DNA of 5,183 bases from a virus. Lineage: Duplodnaviria > Heunggongvirae > Uroviricota > Caudoviricetes. The notes below the pieces were generated by a model. It saw nothing but the letters and a program-made list of their open reading frames with translations, made no database searches and was not told the origin of the DNA. The translations under genes and the position numbers were made by a program. Numbering within the stretch: position 1 is the first letter of the stretch; each line of letters opens with the position of its first letter. The stretch covers positions 1 through 5,183 of the IMG/VR virus record IMGVR_UViG_2667527959_000003. One strand, written 5' to 3'. Shown here in pieces: positions 1 to 5,183 of this stretch.

Positions 1-126
1 ATGATTATTCGCCAACGCGTAAAGCCAATGCCATCGAGAGAGGAATTGCTTAAGAGAAAGAGTTTCGGTTCTGTTAATGACAACAAATATCTGAATGCGA
101 TGTGGCGCAAAGGAGGCAACCAGTGA
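1..126 (+). CDS. 3' end of an upstream gene (5'-truncated by window edge), hypothetical protein
   Basis: Open frame from base 1 with no stop until TGA at 124-126 ([10 protein letters not shown]...AMWRKGGNQ*). The stop overlaps the GTG start of the next gene (GTGA at 123-126), the same coupling seen throughout the chain. The ATG at position 1 is probably coincidental. Confidence 0.4.
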
Positions 127-815
127 GCAAGATTGACTATCAGGTACTGCGTGAGGCAGCAGTAGCAATTGAAACAGTAGCAACACCTCAAAAATTGCTG
201 GCATTTCGTATGAAAGTCACACCTCAGGTTGTGCTGGCTCTACTGGATGAACGAGATGCATTAAATGAACGCCTAGCCGAACTGGAGGCTGATTTAGCAG
301 GGCTGGCCGAAGACCACCAGAAAGCGACTGAGTCAATTAAGCAGGCTGATGCAGCTGTTAAGTTGGCACACGAGAAGTTTTCGGCGCTGGCGGCGGAGAA
401 TGCGATGTTGAAGCAACGGACACAGCAACTTATCGACATCATTAGTAATACTGACAATGACTACTGCATGTGTGGTTCTGCTATGAAAGACCACGTGCAC
501 GGCGGATGTGGTTATCCTACTGGCATGTTCGATTATTACTACAACCAGTGGCTGGAGTCAGATAACAAAACCCCAGCCACCGACGCTTTCCTGGCTGAAG
601 TACGGGCAAGTGCTATTCCAGATGAAGCGACGGAGCGTGATTTATTCGAAGAATGGGTAATGGAGAAGATATTCATCTCTAAGACCACGCTAGAAGGTTT
701 GCGCACTGATGACGGCTACCGCAACTCAACTCTTTCCGGTACTGATTACAACGGAATGTGGTCGCAGTGGAAAGCAATTCGCGCCGCCCAACTTCGCCAG
801 GAGGCAGCCCAATGA
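123..815 (+). CDS. Ea22-like protein (N-terminal Ea22-type coiled-coil region plus C-terminal domain with a Cys/His cluster), about 230 aa
   Basis: ORF track frame 102..815. I prefer the GTG at 123 because AAGGAGG at 110-116 lies 6 nt upstream and the start overlaps the upstream stop. The N-terminus [13 protein letters not shown]...VVLALLDE...LAELEADL is paralogous to the next gene and matches my recollection of the Ea22/ead family. Start could alternatively be GTG at 102. Confidence 0.7.
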
Positions 816-1189
816 GCAACATCGACAAACAGGCGCTGCGTGAAATCGCAGCGGCAGCAGTTGGCGCACATGAGCGCCTTAGTGTTATGCCGCCTGATGA
901 CATTTTCGATATCTCACTGGCAGAAGGAACTCAGCTTGATGCAGATATCACTGCCTTGAACGCGCTGAACTCCGCAGCCAACCCCGCCACCGTGCTGGCG
1001 CTGCTGGATGAGTTGGAAATCGCAGAGAAGCGAATCGCTGAACTGGAAGCGAAGCTCGATAGCGCAGATAAATTGCAAGATAGCGCATTTCGTCATGGTC
1101 TTCAGCATGGCTTCAGTTTAGGTCAAACGGATAATCAGGCTGGATTTGAAGAGTGCTTATCTGCCTATGGCACCGGTAAAGGAGAGTGA
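812..1189 (+). CDS. Ea22-like protein, short paralogue (125 aa)
   Basis: ATG at 812 overlaps the upstream stop (ATGA, 812-815) and AGGAGG at 799-804 lies 7 nt upstream. The ORF track's 758 start is an in-frame extension into the upstream gene. N-terminus [16 protein letters not shown]...PATVLALLDELEIAEKRIAELEAKL parallels the preceding gene. Confidence 0.7.
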   Translation: MSNIDKQALREIAAAAVGAHERLSVMPPDDIFDISLAEGTQLDADITALNALNSAANPATVLALLDELEIAEKRIAELEAKLDSADKLQDSAFRHGLQHGFSLGQTDNQAGFEECLSAYGTGKGE

Positions 1190-1191
1190 AT

Positions 1192-1464
1192 GTGAAAAAT
1201 TATCTCAGCAATTTAGCCAGCATGCTTCAGGGGATTGCAGGTGTCATTTCAGACGGCGAGCGGGTGCAGAAAGAGTGCCCTGCGCACTTAAAGTCAGCAC
1301 TACTCGAGGCTTCTCACGCGCTAGATGGTCAATCGGTCAGGGTCAATTATCCGCCTAATGGAAAGCCTGAAATTGTTAATGCCCGCGGACACCATCGACC
1401 GCTTACCTTCCGGGAACGAGTGGCAATCCGCTTACTTGGTGGCAGGACGGAGATTCGCCCATGA
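1192..1464 (+). CDS. Hypothetical protein (about 90 aa)
   Basis: ORF track 1186..1464. GTG at 1192 sits 7 nt after GGAG (1181-1184), whereas GTG at 1186 overlaps the upstream stop but has no spacer. The 3' end is coupled to the next gene by ATGA (1461-1464). No recognisable motif. Confidence 0.55.
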   Translation: MKNYLSNLASMLQGIAGVISDGERVQKECPAHLKSALLEASHALDGQSVRVNYPPNGKPEIVNARGHHRPLTFRERVAIRLLGGRTEIRP

Positions 1465-2282
1465 GCACTATTACCAGAGAACTGGCAAAGCTGTTCAGAA
1501 AAATTACGAATTCTGAAATTGATGCGGAGGGTAACGCTCATGTTGTTTTATCTCCTGCTGATAGCCTCCTGATTAATAATGCGCGTATAGCACTGGCATC
1601 GCTCGAAGCAGAGCCTGTGGCGTATATGGTTGGCACGCAACTTCTGGAAAACATGACACAGGCGATTGCGTACAAAGCGGATACAGCCTTGCAAATTAAG
1701 CCGCTTTACACCGCCCCGTCAGCGCCGGTATCTGTTCCTGATTTGAAACCAGTTGGCTTTTTATTCGTGTCCGATGATGGCGCAGTTGCTTATTCTCCTG
1801 CTGGCTGCCCCATGAAAGGATTTAATCTAATCGGTCCGATTTACGGTGATGTGAACGCCTGCCGCGCCGCCATGCTTCAGTCCGATGGTACCCTCACCAA
1901 TGAAGGTACCATGCAGTTGTCCGGTAATTCCGAACAAATCGAACCCGTAAGTAATCGTGATGAGTTGCCGTTGGACTATCTGCAAGGTCACAAAGACGGC
2001 CTTGAATGGGCGGCGCAACTGGCAGAGGCCAATCATCCGCAAACAGGTGACTGGTTATACGACGACCCAATCGATCTTGCCAGGGCGATTCGCAAAGGTC
2101 CGGATATGCCTACTGTTCAGGCTGGCAACTCTCCGGTAACTCCGGATGGTTCAGCTAACATATTGCGGCGCTGGTTAGCATTTGGTCGCGCAATGCAAAG
2201 TTCTGGCAGTCAGTTACCTCGCCACCTGATTGCAGAAACCGAGTCCATGCTCGCAGCAGCACCGCAGCAGGAGGTGAAGTGA
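1461..2282 (+). CDS. Hypothetical protein, 273 aa, largest accessory ORF
   Basis: Long uninterrupted ORF with ATG at 1461 overlapping the upstream stop and GGAG 8 nt upstream. Ends ...AAPQQEVK*, with the last codons forming the SD for the next gene. No Walker, nuclease or other motif recognised. Confidence 0.7.
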   Translation: MSTITRELAKLFRKITNSEIDAEGNAHVVLSPADSLLINNARIALASLEAEPVAYMVGTQLLENMTQAIAYKADTALQIKPLYTAPSAPVSVPDLKPVGFLFVSDDGAVAYSPAGCPMKGFNLIGPIYGDVNACRAAMLQSDGTLTNEGTMQLSGNSEQIEPVSNRDELPLDYLQGHKDGLEWAAQLAEANHPQTGDWLYDDPIDLARAIRKGPDMPTVQAGNSPVTPDGSANILRRWLAFGRAMQSSGSQLPRHLIAETESMLAAAPQQEVK

Positions 2283-2470
2283 GTATGAGTGCATCACTTA
2301 TAACCGCCTTCAATCAAAGTGCAAATCCAAGCAATGAGCAGGTTGTTGTGTTCGGCTGGATTGCTGAGTATTTCGAAAGCATTTTCGACGATGAATCCGC
2401 TAGGTATTGCAGGAATATTTCTGAATCACTCAAAAATCAGGTTTCTGCTCAACAGGAGGTGAAGTCGTGA
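2279..2470 (+). CDS. Hypothetical small protein (about 61-63 aa)
   Basis: GTG at 2279 overlaps the upstream stop (GTGA), with an alternative ATG at 2285. AGGAGG at 2269-2274. Ends ...SAQQEVKS*. Bracketed by two copies of the CAGGAGGTGAAGT linker. Confidence 0.55.
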   Translation: MSMSASLITAFNQSANPSNEQVVVFGWIAEYFESIFDDESARYCRNISESLKNQVSAQQEVKS

Positions 2471-2679
2471 GCAAGCACATCATCAAATATGACTATCGAG
2501 AGGGAGTTAAACTCCCTAAGCACGAGATTGAGACATGGTGCGGTCATCGGCCATGGTCATTCGAATGGCTTTTTCAGGATGCTCAGCATGCGCTATTGAG
2601 CATTGATCAGGGAACGCTGTTTGTTCCTTGCAAGAATTGTCTGGCAGCAATCATCAAAACGGCGCAGGAGGTGAAGTGA
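2467..2679 (+). CDS. Hypothetical small Cys/His-containing protein (70 aa), possible zinc-binding
   Basis: GTG at 2467 overlaps the upstream stop (GTGA 2467-2470), with AGGAGG at 2454-2459 spaced 7 nt. Sequence contains WCGH...PCKNC (Cys-x-His, then Cys-x2-Cys). Ends ...TAQEVK*. Confidence 0.55.
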   Translation: MSKHIIKYDYREGVKLPKHEIETWCGHRPWSFEWLFQDAQHALLSIDQGTLFVPCKNCLAAIIKTAQEVK

Positions 2680-2963
2680 TGGACTCCTTCGCGAAATATA
2701 CGATCATTGACTGGATAGCATTCCTTCAGGTTTTGCTCATCTGGTTTTATATGGCTTACAGGAGTGGACAGTGGATTGTCAGTGTAGCCTGTAGCAAGGG
2801 ATGGCGTTGGTGGAACCGAAAGAATAAAAAAGCACTGGCATTGGATTCGTTTTACGAAGCATTCAATCTTAACAGTCTTCAGCCTGGTTCTGTCATTGTA
2901 GTCACCACTCAAAGCGGCATGACGATACAAATTCACAAGCCAAAGGAGGAAGGTCGTGGCTAA
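2679..2963 (+). CDS. Small putative membrane protein (94 aa)
   Basis: ATG at 2679 overlaps the upstream stop (TGATG), with AGGAGG at 2666-2671 spaced 7 nt. The ORF track's 2628 start is an in-frame upstream extension. Hydrophobic, Trp-rich stretch IIDWIAFLQVLLIWFYMAY...WIVSVA is consistent with one or two transmembrane helices, followed by a basic patch WRWWNRKNKK. Confidence 0.6.
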   Translation: MDSFAKYTIIDWIAFLQVLLIWFYMAYRSGQWIVSVACSKGWRWWNRKNKKALALDSFYEAFNLNSLQPGSVIVVTTQSGMTIQIHKPKEEGRG

Positions 2964-3237
2964 CCTTCAACTTGCCGTCAAAGGTGAATACTTCGATGCC
3001 ATGATTCGAGGAGAGAAAACGGAAGAGTATCGCCTGTGTAATGACTATTGGAATAAGCGAATTATGTTCCGGGAGTATGACCGCCTGATTATCACAAAGG
3101 GATATCCGAAGCGCGACGACTCCAGTCGCAGAATTGATGTTCCGTATGGAGGATATGAAGTGAAAACAATCACACACCCCCACTTCGGTGATAAACCGGT
3201 AAAGGTATACGCGATAAAGGTGAATATCAATTGCTAA
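2956..3237 (+). CDS. Hypothetical protein, 93 aa, possibly ASCH/PUA-like fold; occupies the position of lambda ea8.5
   Basis: GTG at 2956 with AGGAGG at 2944-2949 spaced 6 nt; overlaps the upstream gene by 8 nt. The motif KGEYFDAMIRGEKTEEYR resembles the N-terminal beta-strand/GxKT.E.R signature of ASCH/DUF3850-type domains, from memory only. Length and position match lambda ea8.5, but I cannot confirm identity. Confidence 0.6.
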   Translation: MANLQLAVKGEYFDAMIRGEKTEEYRLCNDYWNKRIMFREYDRLIITKGYPKRDDSSRRIDVPYGGYEVKTITHPHFGDKPVKVYAIKVNINC

Positions 3238-3261
3238 ATTAGTAGCATAGCATAAAGATGC

Positions 3262-3286
3262 TTGCATTAATGAAGTGTGTATAATA
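3262..3286 (+). promoter_or_regulatory. Putative sigma70-type promoter (perfect -10 TATAAT at 3280-3285, weak -35)
   Basis: TATAAT at 3280-3285 in the AT-rich island upstream of the small ORF at 3350. The nearest TTGCAT (3262-3267) is only 12 nt away, so the -35 is poor. AT-rich DNA throws up such hexamers by chance. Confidence 0.3.
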
Positions 3287-3349
3287 ACGCCTCATCAATA
3301 GTAAACTACTGAAATAGCAAAAAAATGCATATTAAAGAGGATTCGAAAA

Positions 3350-3541
3350 TTGAAAATGTTCATGCAAATAGACAGACGCATAGATATTAATGGCAATTCA
3401 TACTTAGTTAGATGCGAAGAGAGGCCTGACGGTGAGTGGCGTGTATATGATATTGACCGTAAGATCAATATCAGCACCATGAACAAAGACACTGCCTTTG
3501 ATGAATGGAAAGCTGAAGCTAAAAAACAACATAATTCGTAG
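3350..3541 (+). CDS. Hypothetical small protein (about 61-63 aa) in the AT-rich island
   Basis: ORF with TTG at 3350 (ATG at 3356 and 3362 in frame) and GAGG at 3337-3340. Lysine/aspartate-rich product. Sits in strongly AT-rich sequence between a putative promoter and a hairpin terminator. Confidence 0.45.
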   Translation: MKMFMQIDRRIDINGNSYLVRCEERPDGEWRVYDIDRKINISTMNKDTAFDEWKAEAKKQHNS

Positions 3542-3583
3542 AATTACAAAAACCCTAACCAATTGATGGATTTCTTTTATCTG

Positions 3584-3608
3584 AACTCGCTACGGCGAGT
3601 TTTGTTTT
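3584..3608 (+). terminator. Putative rho-independent terminator
   Basis: Inverted repeat AACTCGC (3584-3590), loop TACG, GCGAGTT (3595-3601), then a T-rich tail TTGTTTT. Confidence 0.5.
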
Positions 3609-3621
3609 ATGGAGATGATAA

Positions 3622-3789
3622 ATGCACTTTCGAGTCACAGGTGAATGGAATGGAGAGCCATTCAACAGGGTTATCGAAGCAGAGGACATCAACGACTGCT
3701 ATAACCACTGGATGCTATGGGCGCAGATAGCGCATGCAGACGTAACAAATATTCGAATTGAAGAACTGAAAGAACACCAAACCGCCTGA
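3622..3789 (+). CDS. Hypothetical small acidic protein (55 aa), absent from the supplied ORF track
   Basis: ATG at 3622 with GGAGA at 3611-3615 spaced 6 nt. Open for 55 codons (MHFRVTGEWNGEPFNRVIEAEDINDCYNHWMLWAQIAHADVTNIRIEELKEHQTA), stop TGA at 3787-3789 inside the loop of the following terminator. Confidence 0.45.
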   Translation: MHFRVTGEWNGEPFNRVIEAEDINDCYNHWMLWAQIAHADVTNIRIEELKEHQTA

Positions 3790-3802
3790 TGGCGGTTTTT
3801 TC
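3780..3802 (+). terminator. Rho-independent terminator
   Basis: Stem AACCGCC (3780-3786), loop TGAT, GGCGGTT (3791-3797), followed by a T-run (TTTTTT to 3801) then CTT. Confidence 0.65.
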
Positions 3803-3842
3803 TTGCGTGTAATTGCGGAGACTTTGCGATGTACTTGACACT
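3803..3842 (+). promoter_or_regulatory. pI-like cII-dependent promoter region (TTGC-N6-TTGC box) overlapping the start of xis
   Basis: TTGC at 3803-3806 and TTGC at 3813-3816 separated by 6 nt (GTGTAA), the cII recognition pattern known from lambda pRE and pI. In lambda the pI transcript starts just inside xis, so Int is made without Xis. Confidence 0.6.
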
Positions 3843-4047
3843 TCAGGAGTGGAACGCACGCCAGCGGCGCCCAAGAAGCCTTGAAACAGTTCGTCGATGG
3901 GTACGCGAGTGCAGGATATTCCCTCCTCCGGTTAAGGATGGAAGAGAGTATCTGTTCCACGAATCAGCGGTAAAGGTTGACTTAAATCGACCAGTAACAG
4001 GTAGCCTTTTGAAGAGGATCAGAAATGGGAAGAAGGCGAAGTCATGA
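3829..4047 (+). CDS. xis: Excisionase Xis (72 aa), lambda-type
   Basis: Product MYLTLQEWNARQRRPRSLETVRRWVRECRIFPPPVKDGREYLFHESAVKVDLNRPVTGSLLKRIRNGKKAKS matches lambda Xis as I recall it. GGAG 8 nt upstream. 23-nt overlap with int, as in lambda. Confidence 0.95.
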   Translation: MYLTLQEWNARQRRPRSLETVRRWVRECRIFPPPVKDGREYLFHESAVKVDLNRPVTGSLLKRIRNGKKAKS

Positions 4048-5095
4048 GCGCCGGGATTTACCCCCTAACCTTTATATAAGAAACAATGGATATTACTGCT
4101 ACAGGGACCCAAGGACGGGTAAAGAGTTCGGATTAGGCAGAGACAGGAGGATAGCAATTACTGAAGCAATACAGGCAAACATTGAGTTATTTTCAGGACA
4201 CAAACACAAGCCTCTGACAGCAAGAATCAACAGTGATAATTCTGTTACGTTACATTCATGGCTTGATCGCTACGAAAAAATCCTCGCCAGCAGAGGAATC
4301 AAGCAGAAGACACTCATAAATTACATGAGCAAAATTAAAGCAATAAGGAGGGGTCTGCCTGATGCTCCACTTGAAAACATCACCACAAAAGAAATTGCGG
4401 CAATGCTCAATGGATACATAGACGAGGGCAAAGCGGCGTCAGCCAAGTTAATCAGATCAACACTGAGCGATGCATTCCGAGAGGCAATAGCTGAAGGCCA
4501 TATAACAACAAACCCGGTCTCTGCCACTCGCGCAGCAAAATCAGAGGTAAGGAGATCAAGGCTTACGGCTGACGAATACCTGAAAATTTATCAAGCAGCA
4601 GAATCATCACCATGTTGGCTAAGACTTGCAATGGAACTGGCTGTTGTTACCGGGCAGCGAGTTGGTGATTTATGCGAAATGAAGTGGTCTGATATCGTAG
4701 ATGGATATCTTTATGTCGAGCAAAGCAAAACAGGCGTAAAAATTGCCATCCCAACAGCATTGCATGTTGATGCTCTCGGAATATCAATGAAGGAAACACT
4801 TGATAAATGCAAAGAGATTCTTGGCGGAGAAACCATAATTGCATCTACTCGTCGCGAACCGCTTTCATCCGGCACAGTATCAAGGTATTTTATGCGCGCA
4901 CGAAAAGCATCAGGTCTTTCCTTCGAAGGGGATCCGCCTACCTTTCACGAGTTGCGCAGTTTGTCTGCAAGACTCTATGAGAAGCAGATAAGCGATAAGT
5001 TTGCTCAACATCTTCTCGGGCATAAGTCGGACACCATGGCATCACAGTATCGTGATGACAGAGGCAGGGAGTGGGACAAAATTGAAATCAAATAA
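4025..5095 (+). CDS. int: Integrase Int (356 aa), lambda-type tyrosine recombinase
   Basis: Begins MGRRRSHERRDLPPNLYIRNNGYYCYRDPRTGKEFGLGRDRR and ends REWDKIEIK, as lambda Int does. Catalytic signature in place: R in TGQRVGDL, H..R in HELRSLSARLY, H and Y in LLGHKSDTMASQY. AGAGGA at 4013-4018 spaced 6 nt. Confidence 0.97.
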   Translation: MGRRRSHERRDLPPNLYIRNNGYYCYRDPRTGKEFGLGRDRRIAITEAIQANIELFSGHKHKPLTARINSDNSVTLHSWLDRYEKILASRGIKQKTLINYMSKIKAIRRGLPDAPLENITTKEIAAMLNGYIDEGKAASAKLIRSTLSDAFREAIAEGHITTNPVSATRAAKSEVRRSRLTADEYLKIYQAAESSPCWLRLAMELAVVTGQRVGDLCEMKWSDIVDGYLYVEQSKTGVKIAIPTALHVDALGISMKETLDKCKEILGGETIIASTRREPLSSGTVSRYFMRARKASGLSFEGDPPTFHELRSLSARLYEKQISDKFAQHLLGHKSDTMASQYRDDRGREWDKIEIK

Positions 5096-5122
5096 TGATT
5101 TTATTTTGACTGATAGTGACCT
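5093..5122 (+). promoter_or_regulatory. P' arm arm-type Int binding sites (P'3, P'2, P'1)
   Basis: ATAATGATTT (5093-5102), ATTTTGACTG (5103-5112) and ATAGTGACCT (5113-5122) are reverse complements of the arm-type sites AAATCATTAT, CAGTCAAAAT and AGGTCACTAT. P'3 overlaps the int stop codon. Confidence 0.8.
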
Positions 5123-5127
5123 GTTCG

Positions 5128-5150
5128 TTGCAACAAATTGATAAGCAATG
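5128..5150 (+). promoter_or_regulatory. IHF binding site H' in the P' arm
   Basis: CAACAAATTGATA (5131-5143) is the reverse complement of TATCAATTTGTTG, which fits the IHF consensus WATCAANNNNTTR. Located between the arm-type sites and the core, as in lambda attP. Confidence 0.7.
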
Positions 5151-5168
5151 CTTTTTTATAATGACAAC

Positions 5169-5183
5169 TTAGTATAAAAAAGC
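5169..5183 (+). other. att core (O) of the lambda attachment site, reverse-complement orientation
   Basis: TTAGTATAAAAAAGC (5169-5183) is the exact reverse complement of the lambda common core GCTTTTTTATACTAA. The window ends at the last core base, so the partner arm is not visible. Confidence 0.85.

Follow-up and report, generated by a model that had tools for sequence, protein, structure and literature searches.

The DNA analysed here (5183 nt, referred to as the window; positions 1-5183 of IMG/VR record IMGVR_UViG_2667527959_000003) represents the early-left (PL) accessory region of a lambdoid or P22-like temperate phage or prophage, given in the direction of PL transcription. Our analyses mainly concerned two adjacent plus-strand open reading frames (ORFs): (i) ORF1 (123-815; 230 aa), encoding a chimera in which an Ea22/EaD-type head and a coiled coil are followed by an EaE/Oad2-type body, and (ii) ORF2 (812-1189; 125 aa), encoding a short EaD-type Ead/Ea22 protein. 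In RefSeq both orthologous genes carry the label "ead/Ea22-like family protein".

ORF1 starts with a GTG at position 123, which overlaps the upstream stop codon as GTGA, and the start of ORF2 overlaps the ORF1 stop as ATGA (812-815). A longest-frame listing extends the two frames to in-frame GTG codons further upstream (102 and 758, respectively); since the homologues are exactly 230 and 125 aa long and the boundary sequences are conserved, positions 123 and 812 are supported as the real starts. Both proteins exceed the gathering threshold (27 bits) of Pfam family PF13935 (Ead_Ea22), with 40.6 bits for ORF1 (residues 25-87 on model positions 57-119) and 76.2 bits for ORF2 (residues 2-89 on model positions 1-100), so the affiliation with the Ea22 family proposed in a preliminary description of this DNA holds for both.

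The same description regarded the two genes as tandem paralogues with a common N-terminal module and unrelated C-termini. BLASTP aligned ORF1 with ORF2 at E = 3e-7 (composition-corrected; 29/82 identities) through the N-terminal module only. The Smith-Waterman score of this module (77, compared with 28 ± 5 for shuffled sequences) was reached in 0/5000 shuffles, and that of the stretch preceding the coil (46, compared with 21 ± 4) in 2/5000, while the C-terminal parts scored 19, below the shuffled mean (22 ± 4). As the pre-coil stretch is significant on its own, the N-terminal similarity does not reflect a compositional bias of the coiled coil. The residual nucleotide similarity pointed out earlier corresponds to two repeats, D2 (120-167 matching 809-856 at 73%) and D7 (231-250 matching 992-1011 at 90%). 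The common module and the unrelated C-termini were thus borne out; simple duplicates the genes are not, as ORF1 combines its head with an EaE/Oad2-type body and ORF2 is a short EaD.

The best 120 of 5256 ORF1 relatives match different sub-ranges of the protein at 90-99% identity and are unrelated to it elsewhere. Alignment of 37 of these 120 (alignment A1) revealed the block order N-cap, variable insert, VLALLDE block, stalk (AEDHQ...FSALAAENA), middle cassette, junction, tail cassette and the end AAQLR(K/Q)xxxx*. In ORF1 these blocks, all on the plus strand, are: (i) the N-cap (residues 1-15; 123-167), common to ORF2, EaD of P22 and Ea22 of lambda; (ii) the conserved VLALLDE motif (231-251) with the coiled-coil stalk extending to ALAAENA (residues 36-97; 228-413); (iii) the middle cassette with a Cys/His motif (residues 98-149; 414-569); (iv) an intragenic junction (residues 150-162; 570-608), which links the middle and tail cassettes; and (v) the tail cassette (residues 163-220; 609-782), with a match to phrog_29036 over approximately residues 168-226. 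The second half of the stalk (~302-413) is also present in proteins with an Oad2-type head. AlphaFold2 predicts a single helix at residues 34-109, with a predicted local distance difference test score (pLDDT) of ~90, and 77% of its heptad a/d positions are hydrophobic in one register; this helix of ~75 residues is consistent with a coiled coil.

The junction contains the sequence TPATDAFL and is also found in EaE of P22 and gp27 of HK446 (Oad2). Its core (T150-V160) is invariant in 37/37 relatives of alignment A1, with R161 and A162 nearly so, and its third codon positions are mostly conserved at 0.75-1.0 (two codons at 0.54), compared with ~0.3-0.6 in the flanks. Among 66 distinct proteins of viral contigs it connects 12 or more kinds of upstream cassette with 15 or more kinds of tail, and the Cys/His cassette of ORF1 is paired with at least 8 different tails; these viral loci were retrieved partly by the TPATDAFL pattern, which makes the junction invariant there by construction, but not the diversity joined across it, and the invariance in A1 is independent of this retrieval. 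In a local blastn comparison of the window with 85 related loci, match ends clustered at the positions of the conserved junctions, i.e. at ~107, 167 (167-168 for the N-cap), 228-252, 302-308, 401-415, 601-607 and 782-799.

Reassortment of the blocks is apparent in individual relatives. The commonest close relative (P0019, 236 aa) consists of ORF1 residues 1-164 and a P22-EaE-type tail, and another (P0053) of an Oad2-type head and the middle and tail cassettes of ORF1. The idea of exchangeable C-termini on a conserved helical, oligomerizing part is therefore upheld by hundreds of mosaic relatives, which match the scheme proposed for Ea22 of lambda as a conserved part with exchangeable C-termini (PMC10834534, PMC7093339); a single point of exchange is not, since there are at least four internal ones. 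A further relative (P0027, 355 aa) is identical to ORF1 over residues 1-164 and continues past the junction into an HNH_3 and AP2 homing-endonuclease module, which fits the remark that Oad2-like proteins can be HNH-nuclease fusions (bioRxiv 10.64898/2026.07.10.737580).

The Cys/His string noticed previously in the 230-aa protein is present, at residues 115-131 (465-515) and not at about 468-517. The motif of the middle cassette reads CMCG-x5-H-x3-GCG-x-P-x-GMFDY(H/Y)Y-x2-W, with C115, C117, H124 and C129 encoded at 465-509. A search with residues 105-230 against 1.84 billion cluster representatives returned 107 matches, so this family is narrow. Within a set of 49 motif-covering cluster representatives of 50% identity or less (down to ~40%), C115, M116, C117, G118, G128, C129 and G130 are present in 49/49 and H124 in 45/49. 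Three sequences have K124, and all of them have C127, seen nowhere else among the 49; as they belong to one lineage, this was probably a single evolutionary event. R124 occurs in one sequence, which retains H126. The adjoining block P-x-GMFDY(H/Y)YxxW is also conserved. The conserved cysteines, and the lost histidine matched by a gained cysteine, make C-x-C-x6-H-x4-C a plausible candidate for a small Cys3-His (or Cys4) metal site, in which four conserved Cys/His ligands lie within a short span, as expected of a zinc knuckle in general. The earlier suggestion of a metal site is retained for C115, C117, C129 and H124, while H126 drops out (32/49). The motif was matched by no family of Pfam, NCBIfam or the PDB. 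In the AlphaFold2 model of the full-length protein, obtained with a shallow alignment, the Cys/His stretch had a pLDDT below 50; a model of residues 98-230 built from a more diverse alignment (mean pLDDT 75; motif ~72-78; tail 84-90) was almost entirely helical and gave 0 matches in a fold search. The label "Zinc-finger containing protein" of a match in phage ev099 was discarded, as it belongs to a different, upstream gene and not to an ORF1 homologue.

The domain of the tail cassette (FEx..) is without a Pfam family. In other prophage proteins with a coiled coil it is the N-terminal head, some of these proteins (e.g. P0304) continuing into an Ead_Ea22 domain; it also lies inside an EaA-like protein (P0337) and is found in large lytic phages (~145-150 kb), namely Acinetobacter phage ABPH49 and Serratia phages Kashira and ChuuTotoro. 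This recurrence in three other contexts indicates that the tail cassette is an independent mobile domain of ~55 aa. Its assignment as a part of EaE/Oad2 was considered and rejected, the kinship with these proteins residing in the framework.

ORF2 is composed of an N-cap (11 residues), a variable insert, the VLALLDE motif (992-1012), a short coil and an EaD-type C-terminal module (~1010-1183) ending ..GKGE*. Its closest known counterpart is EaD of P22, the founding member on the "Ead" side of Pfam Ead_Ea22: the two agree in all of their first 11 residues (11/11), residues 67-124 of ORF2 share 62% identity with the EaD C-terminus (E = 4e-23), and both proteins end in K-G-E. They differ in length (197 aa in EaD and 125 aa in ORF2) and in the head insert, and their central regions are unalignable. 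The ORF2 orthologue of mEp043 is annotated as "similar to EaD". Relatives of ORF2 range from 125 to 167 aa, mainly owing to head inserts, and others combine the same head with different C-termini that still end in K-G-E. By these comparisons ORF2 is a short EaD and not a truncated stub, and the former view of a protein that stops soon after its coil has to be refined, since residues 67-124 form the conserved C-terminal module.

The genes are connected by three short boundary sequences on the plus strand. Boundary 1 (CGCAAAGGAGGCAACCAGTGAGC; 104-125) contains the Shine-Dalgarno core of ORF1 and the GTG (123) placed over the upstream TGA, and encodes ..RKGGNQ*; in related loci this sequence (~30 nt) precedes many different downstream genes, with blastn match ends at ~105-124. 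Boundary 2 (..GCCGCCCAACTTCGCCAGGAGGCAGCCCAATGA; 783-815) encodes the C-terminal 10 residues of ORF1 and contains the Shine-Dalgarno core of ORF2 (AGGAGG) and the ATGA overlap. In boundary 3 (AAAGGAGAGTGAATGTG; 1178-1194) the codons for K-G-E double as the Shine-Dalgarno sequence for the next ORF, which likely starts at GTG 1192, because the ATG at 1190 is directly followed by TGA. A start codon lies within -4 to +12 nt in 90 of 108 distinct 3' ends, and in 83 of these 90 the final codons contain a Shine-Dalgarno core. Sequences such as CGCAAAGGAGG... and CGCCAGGAGG..., which overlap a GTGA or ATGA start, give on translation the endings ..RKGGNQ*, ..RQEAAQ* and ..KGVQS*, and the K-G-E ending corresponds to AAAGGAGAG-TGA-N-ATG, with the ATG 1-4 nt past the stop and different genes following. 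K-G-E could equally be encoded by the synonymous AAGGGTGAA; among 21 unique ends the glycine codon is GGA in 18 and GGG in 3, with GGT and GGC in none, compared with 52% for GGT and GGC together at internal glycines. The "+GE" motif, described by Dydecka et al. as of unknown significance (PMC7093339), corresponds to the ribosome-binding site of the gene that follows. Lambda ea22 ends with the identical boundary ..attcgcatcaaaggagagTGAgat (2340-2360 of lambda, minus strand), in which the downstream ATG reads ATC, and which is therefore a relic. Another boundary, GCAGGAGGTGAAGTGA, combines a Shine-Dalgarno sequence, a GTG start and a TGA stop; it is found exactly at 2267-2282 and 2664-2679 and with 81% identity at 2452-2467, and three consecutive proteins end ..QEVK(S)*. 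As in the modular evolution of lambdoid phages, short sequences combining a Shine-Dalgarno core with a start/stop overlap (CGCAAAGGAGGCAACCAGTGAGC, AAAGGAGAGTGA and GCAGGAGGTGAAGTGA) are reused before different genes, and the idea of boundary sequences is known from the older literature on these phages. ORF1 differs in that it also has in-frame junctions inside its coding sequence, resulting in combinatorial proteins and not only in combinatorial gene orders.

The body of ORF1 links it to a protein of reported function. Gp27 of HK446, named Oad2 (OLD anti-defence 2), is reported to bind the P2 OLD abortive-infection nuclease and to inhibit it, while a homologue from HK75 with 54% identity does not; Oad2 was described as "related to P22 EaE" and as occurring in some phages as a fusion with an EaD/Ea22 protein (bioRxiv 10.64898/2026.07.10.737580). 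It is the only member of the family with an EaE-type body that has a biochemical function. ORF1 occupies the same slot, directly 3' of the DUF2737 gene and after abc2, as in HK446, HK75 and P22, and DUF2737 is the upstream neighbour of the gene in the EaE/Oad2 slot in mEp043, HK446, HK75 and one E. coli prophage. ORF1 also has the same framework (alignment A3), i.e. ..ALAAENA, cassette, junction, cassette and (A)AQLR(K/Q)..*, overlapping the next start. It differs in the head, which is of the Ea22/EaD type (MKQM.. in Oad2 and MQQV.. in EaE), and in the middle (Cys/His) and tail cassettes, which are distinct from those of both proteins. BLASTP matched ORF1 to gp27 (E = 1e-7, residues 47-167) and to EaE (E = 1e-7) at a level comparable to that between gp27 and EaE, which match through the same junctions (E = 4e-9); the pairwise likeness of ORF1 to either protein is carried only by the junctions and the stalk. 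According to these comparisons, ORF1 represents the EaE/Oad2 type in its "EaD/Ea22-fused" form and has its own set of cassettes. In alignment A3, gp27 of HK446 and gp28 of HK75 are near-identical in head, stalk and junctions and differ in the two cassettes. Since the inactive HK75 homologue thus differs from Oad2 essentially only in its cassettes, these most likely set the target specificity, and since the cassettes of ORF1 are different, its target is probably not that of Oad2.

In comparison with Ea22 of lambda, ORF1 aligned over residues 1-45 of both proteins (44% identity, E = 2e-5), but the similarity stopped at residue 45, and ORF2 gave no significant pairwise match, so that the relation suggested between the pair and lambda Ea22 is confined, at this level, to the beginning of ORF1. 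Common features include family PF13935, the N-cap MSxIxxQALREAA, the (V)LxLLDE motif, a coiled coil followed by a variable C-terminus, and the position in the early-left operon between recombination genes and xis. ORF2 (..GTGKGE) has the same K-G-E end, unlike ORF1 (..QEAAQ). Lambda Ea22 is a tetramer whose C-terminal domain is dimeric (PMC10834534); neither ORF has this alpha/beta dimeric domain with its HRYYGVGG loop, or the AGIRIKGE tail. DUF551, reported for an Ea22 variant of Shiga toxin (Stx) phages and brought up in the preliminary description, is absent from both ORFs (no Pfam match at E ≤ 0.1).

The window begins with the 3' part of a DUF2737 gene (1-126, plus strand; PF10930, E = 6e-18), a homologue of HK97 gp38. 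P22 orf56, annotated only as a hypothetical protein, is presumably its counterpart, judging from position. Coupled directly to ORF2 is a small plus-strand ORF of 90-92 aa (1186 or 1192 to 1464) with a full-length match to phrog_14964 (E = 7e-63); it falls, in two RefSeq relatives, into a stretch of ~270 nt without an annotated gene. The next gene, EaA-like (1461-2282, plus strand; 273 aa), encodes a protein with no Pfam match and with piecewise matches to phrog_60, phrog_5117 and phrog_660; its N-terminus (MSTITRE..) is common to genes after K-G-E boundaries at other loci, and it looks mosaic in the same manner as ORF1 and ORF2. Several small genes follow, including one for a 93-aa protein (2956-3237, plus strand) with a strong match to phrog_625 and a weak, sub-threshold likeness to the ASCH domain (Pfam E = 0.024); the gene at roughly this position in annotated relatives, compared by position and without alignment, encodes a DUF4752 family protein. 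A perfect hairpin with an 8-bp stem (3779-3798; AAACCGCC-TGAT-GGCGGTTT), terminator-like and with T-runs after it on both strands, is placed directly 3' of a 55-aa ORF (3622-3789) and upstream of xis (3829-4047), which is followed in the window gene order by int (4025-5095).

The left part of the window is ~98% identical to phages mEp043 and mEp213, and the int-xis part shows the same level of identity (~98%) to phage 434 and relatives (M60848). The mEp043/mEp213-like stretch covers positions 1-3801 and the 434-like stretch ~3568-5183; the integrase of mEp043 and mEp213 is different (SfX-type). As the two ends match different phages, a recombination joint of two phage lineages lies within the window. 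In the phage collection, 80% coverage of the window is not reached by any record, and nucleotides 100-1200 are covered to 80% in 2/5426 E. coli genomes; together with the different matches of the two ends, this rarity of near-full coverage shows the window to be itself a mosaic. In annotated relatives, the region just upstream, with recombination and anti-RecBCD functions, contains cIII, kil, an annealing recombinase gene (Erf or Rad52-type), ssb and abc2. Rfam returned 0 RNA families in the window, promoter and terminator scans gave nothing relevant to ORF1 or ORF2, and the composition profile of positions 1-1200 was unremarkable. Antisense ORFs listed within 123-1189 (e.g. 224-457 and 914-1108 on the minus strand) were regarded as unlikely to be genes solely on the ground that full-length homologues of the plus-strand frames are abundant.

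Starting from the observed identity, context, mosaic architecture, junctions, Cys/His motif and coupling signals, and taking the mode of exchange from comparative data, we propose that the chimeric ORF1 and its short EaD neighbour are products of recombination at junctions and that they act as an oligomeric, cassette-bearing binder of a host or prophage protein, a reading to which we assign roughly an even chance. Crossovers by homologous or relaxed homologous recombination would take place at the DNA-conserved junctions and gene boundaries, possibly promoted by single-strand-annealing recombinases, which related phages encode just upstream; two papers describe recombinase-driven exchange at short or diverged homology (PMC2327257, PMC3945230). 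Heads, stalk segments, middle cassettes and tails would then reassort freely among phages and prophages. The coiled coil is expected to form an oligomer, as in the lambda Ea22 tetramer, displaying several copies of two small variable modules, i.e. the probable Cys3-His metal knuckle and the helical tail of ~55 aa. The target of these modules may be a specific protein of the host or of a prophage, which they would bind and neutralize or modulate. ORF1 would accordingly be an oligomeric binder with a specificity set by its cassettes.

Several points weigh against this proposal. The experimental support concerns relatives and not ORF1 and ORF2 themselves: the Oad2 data come from one preprint, dated July 2026, with OLD inhibition reported for HK446 gp27 only, and the cassettes of ORF1 are unrelated to those of gp27, the parts presumed to contact OLD, leaving the framework alone in common with Oad2. 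The only documented phenotype of lambda Ea22 is pro-lysogenic, and a yeast two-hybrid analysis found no partner (PMC10834534). The recombinase genes lie outside the window, the conserved junctions could reflect a structural constraint and not a role in recombination, and the pattern-based retrieval of the viral loci lessens the weight of the junction's invariance there. PADLOC and NCBIfam gave only weak coiled-coil matches (LmuB, DruC, SMC and similar), which we rejected as compositional noise along the coil, and a PDB sequence search with both ORFs gave nothing below E = 0.3 and no Ea22 chain. The plausible metal site stays a candidate; H126 is inconstant, and the model has a pLDDT of ~72-78 in this stretch.

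Alternatively, both proteins could be modulators of the lysis-lysogeny decision, like Ea22 of lambda and Stx phages, acting through a host pathway (e.g. the stress or oxidative response) and not in anti-defence, which we consider possible though rather unlikely. This explanation, defined by phenotype and not by molecular target, overlaps with the binder proposal. Both ORFs are Ead_Ea22 proteins in the operon position of lambda ea22, whose deletion in lambda and Stx phages results in more lytic development and fewer lysogens (PMC7093339, PMC10834534), and Ea22 C-termini differ among phages with the phenotype kept. However, the similarity to lambda Ea22 spans 45 residues in ORF1 and is insignificant in ORF2, the fold of the lambda C-terminal domain is absent, lambda Ea22 has no known mechanism or partner, and the body of ORF1 is of the EaE/Oad2 type, for which anti-defence activity was reported. 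The pro-lysogenic phenotype of lambda Ea22 may represent the activity of a cassette-bearing binder seen at the level of the life cycle, or a distinct function.

The conserved Cys3-His residues and the aromatic block GMFDYHYxxW could also be read as a nucleic-acid-binding zinc knuckle, since aromatic residues often stack on bases. ORF1 would in that case act on DNA or RNA, such as recombination intermediates together with Erf/Rad52 and Abc2, or a small RNA; the gene adjoins recombination genes in related phages, and binding of small RNA was put forward as a speculation in the Ea22 structure paper (PMC10834534). We regard this as improbable, because no zinc-finger or nucleic-acid-binding family was matched by sequence or fold, and because unrelated, Cys-free cassettes readily take the place of this one, which fits a swappable protein-recognition module better than an enzymatic core function or one on nucleic acids.

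Still less credit is given to the view that the ORFs are recombination debris in which only the ribosome-binding-site boundaries are conserved, for the benefit of downstream genes, while the proteins themselves would be functionless. The C-terminal peptides are indeed dictated by the Shine-Dalgarno sequence of the next gene, lambda keeps a boundary relic without a downstream start, and ea22 is reportedly mentioned in connection with non-essential phage genes. Nevertheless, intact frames with 97-99% identity occur in many genomes, the Cys/His cassette has invariant residues across clusters down to ~40% identity, conservation of the tail domain extends to unrelated lytic phages, and one member of the family (Oad2) has a demonstrated activity. 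Finally, the doubt that the N-terminal resemblance of ORF1 and ORF2 is nothing but the compositional bias of a coiled coil, in two unrelated proteins, is of negligible weight, as the many weak matches to unrelated coiled-coil families are outweighed by the BLASTP match (E = 3e-7), the shuffles (0/5000, and 2/5000 for the pre-coil stretch), the PF13935 scores of both proteins and repeats D2 and D7, which rule it out.

Returning to the proposal of a cassette-bearing binder, it can be extended, tentatively and with more doubt than confidence, to EaE, Ea22 and EaD from temperate phages of enterobacteria as one combinatorial system, an oligomeric coiled-coil scaffold with plug-in cassettes that are swapped in frame at the conserved junctions and yield re-targeted immune inhibitors. 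The cassettes would include a previously undescribed Cys3-His knuckle (CMCG-x5-H-x3-GCG..GMFDYHY) and the mobile FEx domain of ~55 aa, the swaps would probably be made by the phage's own annealing recombinase, and OLD would be the first identified target.

The locus belongs to a widespread, very common and already-annotated family, of which it is an ordinary member, and what is added here is a finer map of the cassettes, the link to EaE/Oad2, the conservation of the candidate metal site and the explanation of the C-terminal peptides by ribosome-binding sites. A large share of the prophages of E. coli, Shigella and Salmonella, Shiga-toxin phages among them, have Ea22-family genes, for which we know of no molecular mechanism. 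That ORF1-type proteins share their slot and framework with the OLD inhibitor Oad2 provides concrete experimental leads on function: it is precisely in the swappable cassettes that active and inactive Oad2 homologues differ, and a probable, conserved metal site is found in one common cassette. The published "+GE" motif has a simple explanation in the ribosome-binding site of the downstream gene. If the combinatorial system exists, ORF1 would be an inhibitor of another defence protein, the pro-lysogenic phenotype of Ea22 would be a side effect of neutralizing an abortive-infection or stress sensor, and phages would be able to re-target their inhibitors rapidly to different host or prophage immune proteins.

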